DNA of 64,000 nt from Eledone cirrhosa. Lineage: Eukaryota. Where the stretch lies: positions 220,658,001 to 220,722,000 of the forward strand of contig OZ024743.1 of assembly GCA_964016885.1 (NCBI GenBank), in the 5' to 3' direction. This document shows positions 54,734 through 56,902 of this stretch, one piece after another; within the stretch, counting starts at the first letter, position 1, and each line of letters begins with the position of its first letter. The notes under the pieces were generated by a model. The model ran no database searches. It was not told the origin of the DNA and worked only from the letters and a program-made list of their open reading frames with translations. The position numbers were made by a program, and so were the translations under genes.

Positions 54734-56902
54734 GGAACCAGTAAGACCCCGACAGCTGAGCTCAAGCCGTTTCGACGGCTAATTCTGGACTAAATGAACA
54801 TTTATCCTGGTATTTAAATAGCCGATCTTCTCAAGGGGTAATTCCATATATGGTCAAAGTGATTGTCAAAAATCAGTAGTAATTCTGTGGTTGCAAATTA
54901 GTAGGGGAGATGGTGGCTAAACCTGCCAGTAGGAGAAAGAGGGGAGGGGGTGGAGTAGACCCAATCAAGCGTTGGTAGTGCCAGCTACAGCTGGGCATGA
55001 GGTCAAAGAAGATACAGGGGAGGGGGAGGGGGAGGAAGTCGGAACGGTAGGTAGAACAATGGGGGGTAGAAATAGGAAAGAAAAAATACTGAGAGTGAAG
55101 AAAAGCAAATAAGTGTAAAGAAAAAAGTAAAGTAAATTAAATTCTACGACCTAGGTGTCAGGATATTGTTAGGCGAGAATAAAATAAAGAAAGAAAGAAA
55201 GAAGTAAATAAATAAATAAATAAATAAATAAGGAAATAAGTAAAAGAACTAGGTGGGACGGTATAGGCAAGGACCCTTTTAAGAGGTATAAGTACGTAAA
55301 TGATACGGTGACTGGTCAACAAAAGGGGCCAAAATACTAAAGAGACTACCACGAAATAAACAATAAAGGTTTCCATCCCGGGTCAGCAACGACCCAGTGC
55401 AGCAAAGTGAACTTGTACGAGATGATAATTCTGAGTCCCGAGAAAAATATATACTAATGCTAACTCTAAAAGATCTAAAACAAGCTACATGAAAGTTCGT
55501 ACGAAATAAAGGTAGAATACGGAGAAATAAATTTAGAATCCACCCCGCCCAGAAGAAAAGCGAAGCAAGAAATACTGAAACGAAAAAATAAGGCATAAGT
55601 GCCACTAAGAAATATAGAGGGCACAGAGAATAGTGGGAGCGGTCTGAAAAAGGGGGCAAGTATCCGGGGTCTAAGCCAACTGCTATAAAGGGCGGAGTCC
55701 GCCAAATCTATCAAAGACTAGGGGAGGGGGGAGTGGGGGTACTAAGGCTACATGGAGCCAAAGGGCAGCCTCGGGTGGGCGAGAAAAGACGCCGACAAAG
55801 GAGAAGAGCTGGGGTAGAAGGACAAAGGAGAGAGGGGGGAAGGAAATAAAGGAAGCGATAAAAGAATACAAAGAAGATCTTACGTCTTCCTTGGCAAGCA
55901 GGGGTTACCCATTGCAAAATCGGCAACTGGGGTGTTATAGCCCTAGTCTACCCCCCCGGGTCATTATTTTTTCGTTTCAGTATTTCTTGCTTCGCTTTTC
56001 TTCTGGGCGGGGTGGATTCTAAATTTATTTCTCCGTATTCTACCTTTATTTCGTACGAACTTTCATGTAGCTTGTTTTAGATCTTTTAGAGTTAGCATTA
56101 GTATATATTTTTCTCGGGACTCAGAATTATCATCTCGTACAAGTTCACTTTGCTGCACTGGGTCGTTGCTGACCCGGGATGGAAACCTTTATTGTTTATT
56201 TCGTGGTAGTCTCTTTAGTATTTTGGCCCCTTTTGTTGACCAGTCACCGTATCATTTACGTACTTATACCTCTTAAAAGGGTCCTTGCCTATACCGTCCC
56301 ACCTAGTTCTTTTACTTATTTCCTTATTTATTTATTTATTTATTTATTTACTTCTTTCTTTCTTTCTTTATTTTATTCTCGCCTAACAATATCCTGACAC
56401 CTAGGTCGTAGAATTTAATTTACTTTACTTTTTTCTTTACACTTATTTGCTTTTCTTCACTCTCAGTATTTTTTCTTTCCTATTTCTACCCCCCATTGTT
56501 CTACCTACCGTTCCGACTTCCTCCCCCTCCCCCTCCCCTGTATCTTCTTTGACCTCATGCCCAGCTGTAGCTGGCACTACCAACGCTTGATTGGGTCTAC
56601 TCCACCCCCTCCCCTCTTTCTCCTACTGGCAGGTTTAGCCACCATCTCCCCTACTAATTTGCAACCACAGAATTACTACTGATTTTTGACAATCACTTTG
56701 ACCATATATGGAATTACCCCTTGAGAAGATCGGCTATTTAAATACCAGGATAAATGTTCATTTAGTCCAGAATTAGCCGTCGAAACGGCTTGAGCTCAGC
56801 TGTCGGGGTCTTACTGGTTCCTATTACCCACTCTACTACCTCAAGTATTGAGTACTTTGGTGCGTTATGGTCCACCTGGTTCCTTACCACATTTCCTTCG
56901 TT
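54734..56902. mobile_element. Family-C large fold-back element (copy 6): 858-bp inverted arms (54734-55591, 55964-56821), 372-bp spacer, one-sided tail to 56902; non-coding
   Basis: Arms look identical by eye (identical 72-aa translations at 55158- and 56179+); (TA)n on both sides; complete HHR in each arm. Confidence 0.92.
56716..56809 (+). ncRNA. Type I HHR, U3-A8 core variant with long stems II and III (mirror copy 54746-54839 on the minus strand)
   Basis: acccc-TTGAGAA-gatcggcta..tagccgtc-GAAA-cggct(tgagctc)agctg-TC-ggggt; 5-bp stem I; GUC at 56802-56804. Confidence 0.8.

Follow-up and report, generated by a model that had tools for sequence, protein, structure and literature searches.

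Fold-back insertions of a putative Hydra-clade Penelope-like element in Eledone cirrhosa and their probable origin by priming on both target strands

At positions 54734–56902 of the window (the whole stretch of DNA analysed here, 64,000 nucleotides of Eledone cirrhosa contig OZ024743.1) lies a 2.2-kb fold-back with two long identical arms. The question it raises is what kind of element this is and how its inverted arms were made. A sequence-only reading had described it as a very young, non-coding and non-autonomous element, moved by the reverse transcriptase (RT) of a separate partner. Comparison with the genome of the same species instead identified an autonomous parent and a family with two fixed ends that pair one to one, in which the two arms are independent in length, come from the same source and meet at junctions with microhomology. 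The layout of the window element is the arrangement of an inverted copy plus a tail that is already described for Penelope-like elements in the text of Craig et al. 2021 (PMC8557442). The window locus by itself is ordinary; its family is unusually informative.

The insertion, its target and its parent

In an exact alignment, segments 54734–55591 and 55964–56821 are reverse complements over 858 bp with zero mismatches, as had been judged by eye, and the pairing comes to 861 bp once the TAT common to the flanks is counted. Two copies make up the structure. The minus-strand copy (54734–55967) is tail-less and 5'-truncated, has its 3' end at a position that we call site B, reaches 1305 nt as counted from the parent unit's tail end and contains the last 20 nt of the parent ORF. 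The plus-strand copy (55964–56902) is tail-bearing and likewise 5'-truncated, has its 3' end at site A and carries 929 nt of the parent 3' UTR. They meet head to head in a 4-nt microhomology, TTAT (55964–55967), and the 372-bp spacer (55592–55963, minus strand) is the unpartnered part of the longer copy, that is, upstream 3' UTR and the ORF stop. The tail of 81 nt (56822–56902, plus strand) is present on the right side only, and spans 78 nt between sites B and A when the shared TAT is counted. The description as non-coding is right in that there is almost no coding sequence, but not entirely, as the end of the spacer holds the last codons of the parent ORF (NDPGG-stop).

Both outer ends of the element sit in (TA)n, which occupies 54619–54733 on the left and 56903–57114 on the right. 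This tract belongs to an older Penelope-like repeat (54445–57361, plus strand) that was broken by the insertion and has its own canonical hammerhead core at 57276. The nesting noted in the sequence-only reading is real, because the same flank exists uninterrupted and inverted at about 52043–52700 (minus strand), where it serves as a natural record of the empty site; canonical cores of the host repeat are found at 52138, 53845 and 57276. The left (TA)n consists of repeated (TA)10-12-TG units and is far longer than the (TA)8 of the empty-site paralog, and it is possible that the target was reiterated at or after insertion. Other Penelope-like families in the window are also arranged head to head with hammerhead cores in both arms, at 5971(-)/6096(+), at 48281(-)/51687(+) and at 52138(-)/53845 and 57276(+). 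Pieces of a different Penelope-like element (RT with YVDD, GIY-YIG) lie in an inverted arrangement at 2477–5000.

A search of the species' own 3.0-Gb genome returned many near-identical copies of the window element among the matches listed. Following the spacer, as had been advised, led to the parent: longer genomic copies continue from the spacer into an ORF. In a natural tandem the parent unit measures 3,531 bp, with an ORF that ends at base 2246 and encodes 718 aa from the first Met. The predicted protein has an RT followed by a C-terminal GIY-YIG endonuclease, with motifs YRDD and VIY...AYIG; a Pfam scan of the parent ORF gave no match, so these two calls are based on motifs and 279 homologues. 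The protein contains RWR (RWK/RWR in relatives), DKT in place of DKG and a linker CxCX5C motif (CNCPDRSIC); it lacks CCHH, has a single Cys inside the GIY-YIG core, and near its end carries CxxC (CNLC) and CxH (CKH). The copies inspected have their outer ends in (TA)n, and inverted 5'-truncated copies, one-sided tails and partial tandems are all present in the family. Measured against the criteria given for the Hydra clade in the text of PMC8557442 (RWK, DKT, CxCX5C, no CCHH, CxxC, CxH and (TA)n), the parent is assigned on motifs as a putative new Hydra-clade Penelope-like element with a C-terminal endonuclease (EN+). The layout was known; this membership, as read from sequence motifs, is new.

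By comparison with these copies, the window element is made up of two truncated 3' portions (3' UTR and last codons) of the autonomous element, placed head to head. It is thus not a non-autonomous element but the 3' UTR of an autonomous one with a junction of its own, which is the outcome that the sequence-only reading had itself named as its refutation, and because of this no separate partner RT is needed. The family is young, with intact ORFs.

Several observations on related copies are recorded here. At L023:3949-4057, and at tandem junctions generally, the tail shares the reading frame of the ORF that follows it, has no stop codon and lies before that ORF's first Met. At L199:1467-3523 (G000:C2 about 356,030,000), seven tandem tail–ORF junctions with a 299-bp spacing lie beside a copy that starts at position 140 and form a retrozyme-like mini array derived from the window element's family; locus L200 has a two-unit, 226-bp version. 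A four-unit array at L203 (G000:C1, from about 91,489,200) has at its 5' end a satellite of >50 units, each of them the same 55-bp stretch of ORF (unit 1616–1673). Pieces 95–99% identical to window 55560–56200 occur in runs X4, X6 and X7, which are labelled as three other organisms, at depths of 3–70 compared with tens of thousands in X1; they may be relatives, transfer or contamination.

The claim of a ribozyme on each strand is borne out at the level of motif and predicted fold. The right arm has a type I hammerhead motif (56710–56821, plus strand) with a U3-A8 core, UUGAGAA, at 56721–56727, a predicted cut after 56804 and an extended stem I that finishes at the arm end. Its mirror in the left arm (54734–54845, minus strand) has the core at 54834 and the predicted cut between 54751 and 54750. 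The minimum-energy fold of 56705–56825 is a three-way type I hammerhead; its z-score is only -0.37, and fold stability alone is therefore no evidence for a hammerhead. A base-pair-checked descriptor with the UUGAGAA core matched the window only at 56721(+) and 54834(-) and matched none of 2000 shuffles of the right arm, and the U3-A8 variant motif was found in 121 of the 123 family copies scored. A search with canonical CUGANGA missed the element's hammerhead, which is recognised only through its U3-A8 core. Rfam at the gathering score gave no match in the window, the canonical hammerheads there included, and is thus insensitive here. By structure and core the arms thus carry a putative type I hammerhead ribozyme. 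The same core change is reported in Schistosoma Penelope-like elements in the text of PMC4209133, and U3-A8 hammerheads are cited as active in vitro (PMC3088659).

Paired ends and short fold-backs

Across the family, site A is the tail end and site B the tail-less end 78 nt upstream; both finish in TAT, followed by (TA)n. Exact 36-mer counts over the genome gave 4,708 B ends. For A ends the total is about 4,748, obtained by subtracting 146 tandem junctions from 4,894 read-throughs into the tail. Both totals are lower bounds, the family having variants. A table of 62 long loci was compiled by hand, with 22 two-armed insertions found via the arm, 30 via the tail and 10 loci not scored as two-armed. 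One A end and one B end were present in all 52 two-armed insertions, two of the B ends being displaced by 2 and 14 nt, and in arrays whose far end lay beyond the first stretch, that end was of the expected missing type in 7/7. A positional sample, the first 75.8 Mb of contig C1, contained 193 exact hits, which formed 60 AB pairs, 1 AA pair and no BB pair and left 71 hits unpaired. The sole AA pair is a tandem that ends in B. In 20 stretches inspected around unpaired hits, an AB partner had been missed by exact matching in 17, and 3 had no clear partner.

Most of these insertions are much shorter than the window element. Fold-backs of ~200 bp account for 53 of the 61 pairs in the positional sample, only two pairs having a gap between 67 and 1200 nt, so that most products of the element that gave the long form are of this short kind. 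The window itself holds five short relatives of 86–89% identity, which sequence comparison places in an older subfamily: 12778–12974, 22172–22339, 31718–31928, 35161–35372 and 44558–44758. The sequence-only reading had linked them to the window element as its short copies; they are indeed related to it, but they do not derive from the long form.

For the short class 60 loci were fetched and one longer locus was dropped, leaving 59 loci and 118 arms. No arm extends beyond 143 nt from site A (0/118), 82 arms end at 130–139, and the mode is 139; junction strings were distinct in 54/60. A hard edge at 143 had been predicted in advance and held. An extra G had been predicted at the same position and was seen in none of the three arms ending there, a failure that counts against the two-cDNA and cap model set out below. 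After this failure, a G was found at 139 instead: it adjoins the arm end in 14/20 arms that end at 139, compared with 18/71 elsewhere (p=4e-4). Restricted to arms with any insertion the counts are 11/15 and 9/27 (p=0.023), and with short insertions only they are 9/12 and 9/21 (p=0.15, not significant in the discovery set).

The G at 139 was then replicated genome-wide. Two 139 ends are joined through one base at 287 loci. Among the first 50 listed, 2 of which are from the discovery set, 42 have C or G as this base, in place of the A or T of the template. Among the 27 loci with two-base joins, CG occurs 5 times and GC 0 times, and a C after the left arm or a G before the right arm is present in 21. 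A further class of 183 loci, 138-NN, has TA in 23, TC/GA in 17, GC in 8, CG in 0 and other pairs in 2 of the first 50 listed. All three tallies were counted by eye from listings. The GC centres (8 of these first 50; for example, G000:C1:175361505) are unexplained by either the template or the cap model, and are possibly a subfamily variant at position 139.

The truncation edge and the untemplated G in these sister copies form the basis for a predicted promoter inside ribozyme stem II of the right arm (56735–56764, plus strand). It would comprise a TATA-like TATTTAAA at 56735–56742, an inferred main start at A56764 (139 nt from the tail end) and an outer limit at A56760 (143 nt); the mirror promoter in the left arm is predicted at 54791–54820 (minus strand). 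The TATA-like box is followed 29 nt downstream by position 139, the A in TTAGTC, a hexamer that resembles an initiator. In one contig set the depth changes roughly 10- to 25-fold across the inferred start position. Reads of reduced-representation runs also pile up at 56771, possibly because of a restriction site. Where the ribozyme cut is predicted, 98 nt from the tail end, no stop hotspot was seen among arms from the stretches around unpaired hits; the 60-locus short set is blind to such a stop, its anchor starting at 109. An internal promoter has been reported for Drosophila Penelope (PMC2377424), and an untemplated G has been linked to copying of the mRNA cap in L1 (PMC9341517). As the predicted promoters of the two arms face outward, a hairpin RNA from the window element, suggested in the sequence-only reading as a Dicer or ADAR substrate, would need read-through from the host.

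Origin of the inverted arms

We consider it likely that the window element is a head-to-head, 5'-truncated pair that arose by nicking of both (TA)n strands and priming of two cDNAs on one RNA. The RT-endonuclease, assumed from the lizard element to act as a dimer, would nick both strands of a (TA)n tract, and one RNA would be primed at site A from one strand and at site B from the other. Both cDNAs would copy the same region and stop independently; their 3' ends would be joined by microhomology or blunt joining, and each joined cDNA would template the second strand of the other. In most events priming would occur near the 5' end of a capped mRNA, and run-off at the cap after ~139 nt would give the short fold-backs. 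The window copy would be a minority long product, from an RNA continuing upstream of the short start, with priming at a downstream repeat in a tandem transcript or on a circle. A start inside stem II would leave such an mRNA without a ribozyme core at its 5' end. The evidence for this mechanism in the window element's family consists of insertion scars.

A more general form of the proposal is one to which we give only slightly better than even weight: integration in this family would always be double-primed, with the inverted repeat and one-sided tail as its product; the promoter would lie in stem II so that the 5' end of the mRNA cannot self-cleave; and run-off at the cap would leave ~200-bp palindromes by the thousand.

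Among the alternatives, the one that survives best, though we regard it as unlikely, is that the two cDNAs come from different RNAs, though from one source locus or one cell, or that the 139–143 edge is a stall of the RT at stem II with terminal addition of C. One RNA and sister RNAs are inseparable by sequence data, and the edge does fall in the distal stem II hairpin. Independent RNAs, however, give no reason for the strict pairing of A with B. A stall should leak, yet no short arm passes 143 and intermediate gaps are confined to the two pairs noted above; the position of the TATA-like box, 29 nt upstream of the modal end, also speaks for a start rather than a stall.

The arms themselves bear on a second alternative, in which a single cDNA folds back, by self-priming or hairpin sealing, and is copied into the second arm, an idea put forward for Penelope elements of rotifers in the text of PMC3846280. 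In the 52 two-armed insertions the A arm is longer in 25 and the B arm in 22, the two being within 15 nt of each other in 5, and the lengths are uncorrelated (Spearman 0.05). A copied arm can neither exceed its template nor acquire a tail, yet either arm is the longer about equally often, and tail-less sides may be multi-unit arrays beside tailed arms of 124–282 nt. The excess of near-equal arms (5/52, permutation mean 0.6) does favour copying of one arm from the other.

Divergence between the arms of one insertion was 55/38,928 columns (0.14%, indel-prone columns masked) compared with 0.51% between insertions, in the 50 of 52 with enough overlap. At common subfamily sites the arms of these 50 agree at 244/244, where random pairing expects 78.9 discordant, so the arms share their source. 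They also share 25 variants that are private within the sample, 4 of them in the window element, with T>C in 11 and A>G in 0. Copying of arm from arm, or later conversion, would give the same and counts against two independent cDNAs. The T>C excess was dropped as proof of copied RT errors, as inherited errors in source copies would give the same. A 68-mer with two of the window's private variants occurs genome-wide only in its own two arms, and the closest copy compared differs from the window arm at 7/858; this could reflect a source allele that the assembly lacks, an RNA-level change or conversion between the arms. The youth claimed for the element holds for the family, but identical arms do not strictly date this insertion, because they share four variants unseen in other sampled copies.

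Junctions of the 52 two-armed insertions are without inserted bases in 34 and with insertions in 18, and 23 of the 34 insertion-free junctions have microhomology of at least 3 nt (null 5%). Hundreds of symmetric junctions have 0–2 central nt, which leaves a self-primed loop no room; in five junctions both arms carry the extra base. Self-priming is disfavoured because tail-less arms exceed tailed ones as often as the reverse and because the junctions are so symmetric; fold-back copying is in our estimate marginally less probable than sister RNAs or a stall. Multi-unit arrays were rejected as proof of a circular template, as 2/5 arrays contain units that match one another exactly yet differ from their neighbours, which fits later duplication at the DNA level; a circular template for long arms is a possible one.

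That the fold-back is a non-autonomous, MITE-like element, mobilised in its 2.2-kb form by a partner RT, is very improbable. It would account for the near lack of coding sequence and for a complete ribozyme motif in each arm; but the window junction is in none of the other 61 long loci, the 68-mer is confined to the element's own arms, the sequence is collinear with the autonomous element, and the short junctions are nearly all different. An assembly or read fold-back artefact is the least credible of all, for although the arms are perfectly identical and the window junction was unseen in four short-read contig sets (uninformative either way), fixed asymmetric ends in (TA)n recur at thousands of loci, the tail-less end followed by (AT)n is present in 2,291 and 1,979 raw reads of two independent runs, one independent contig carries a short fold-back, and the empty-site paralog fits.

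Known systems and meaning for the family

The closest described relatives are the Hydra-clade elements of PMC8557442, which, as far as that text describes them, share the single ORF with RT then GIY-YIG, RW(K/R), DKT, CxCX5C, CxxC and CxH without CCHH, (TA)n, a ribozyme motif, and the inverted 5'-truncated copy with a one-sided tail. They differ in that the unit here is 3.53 kb with a 1.3-kb 3' UTR, whereas the clade is generally <3 kb; the tail is ~80 nt rather than 30–40; the ribozyme has a U3-A8 core and long stems rather than a canonical core; and nearly all insertions here are inverted, unlike the description of the clade.

The green anole Poseidon protein in vitro nicks and extends both strands, with two start sites bounding the tail (Frangieh et al. 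2024, PMC11167929); according to the same text it needs RNA from the start of the ORF, uses uncut RNA and is predicted to dimerise. The likeness to the present family lies in two RT start sites that bound the tail, extension of both strands, an AT-rich target and a template that crosses the uncut ribozyme site. Poseidon is of another clade, however, and in that text its two sites are not tied to inverted insertions and show no pairing of strand with site. Against our proposal, the description of Poseidon gives no start-site difference between strands and no homology of RNA to target, whereas here both ends finish in TAT that matches the target.

Twin priming of L1 places two target primers on one RNA and leaves a microhomology junction, its two cDNAs covering different parts of the RNA. 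The present proposal is alike in the two primers and the junction, and unlike in that both cDNAs would cover the same part from fixed sites, which gives long perfect inverted repeats. The extra G at the putative RNA 5' end may be likened to the cap-derived G of L1 as described in PMC9341517. The Schistosoma Cercyon hammerheads carry the same compensatory U3-A8 core change in a Penelope-like repeat; they are described in PMC4209133 as minimal and thought to act as dimers, unlike the stem III of at least 4 bp and long stem II, with its predicted promoter, found here. Non-LTR retrozymes are likewise hammerhead-bearing, non-coding derivatives of Penelope-like elements in the account of bioRxiv 10.64898/2026.07.22.740005, but they are head-to-tail tandem units, whereas the window element is a single, unique head-to-head truncation product. 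In the literature covered, which was mostly open, we found no published statement of a strict pairing between A and B ends, of two cDNAs as the source of the inverted arm, or of the cap signature; the supplements of PMC8557442 and PMC11167929 may list such families or models.

The value of the family lies in a gap named in the text of PMC8557442, where the way in which tandem and inverted structures of Penelope-like elements arise is called still undefined. The family's thousands of near-identical insertions give rules at the level of single bases, namely one-to-one pairing of A with B ends, arm lengths that vary independently, arms of the same source, and a hard stop with an extra G. These rules tell published ideas apart and predict exactly what an in vitro assay should show. 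As a young, putatively Hydra-clade set with intact ORFs, the family also supplies a large animal genome with many perfect palindromes, which may affect double-stranded RNA pathways. If integration does proceed as proposed, the scars of this family would locate the transcription start and the two priming sites with single-base precision, no RNA data being required.
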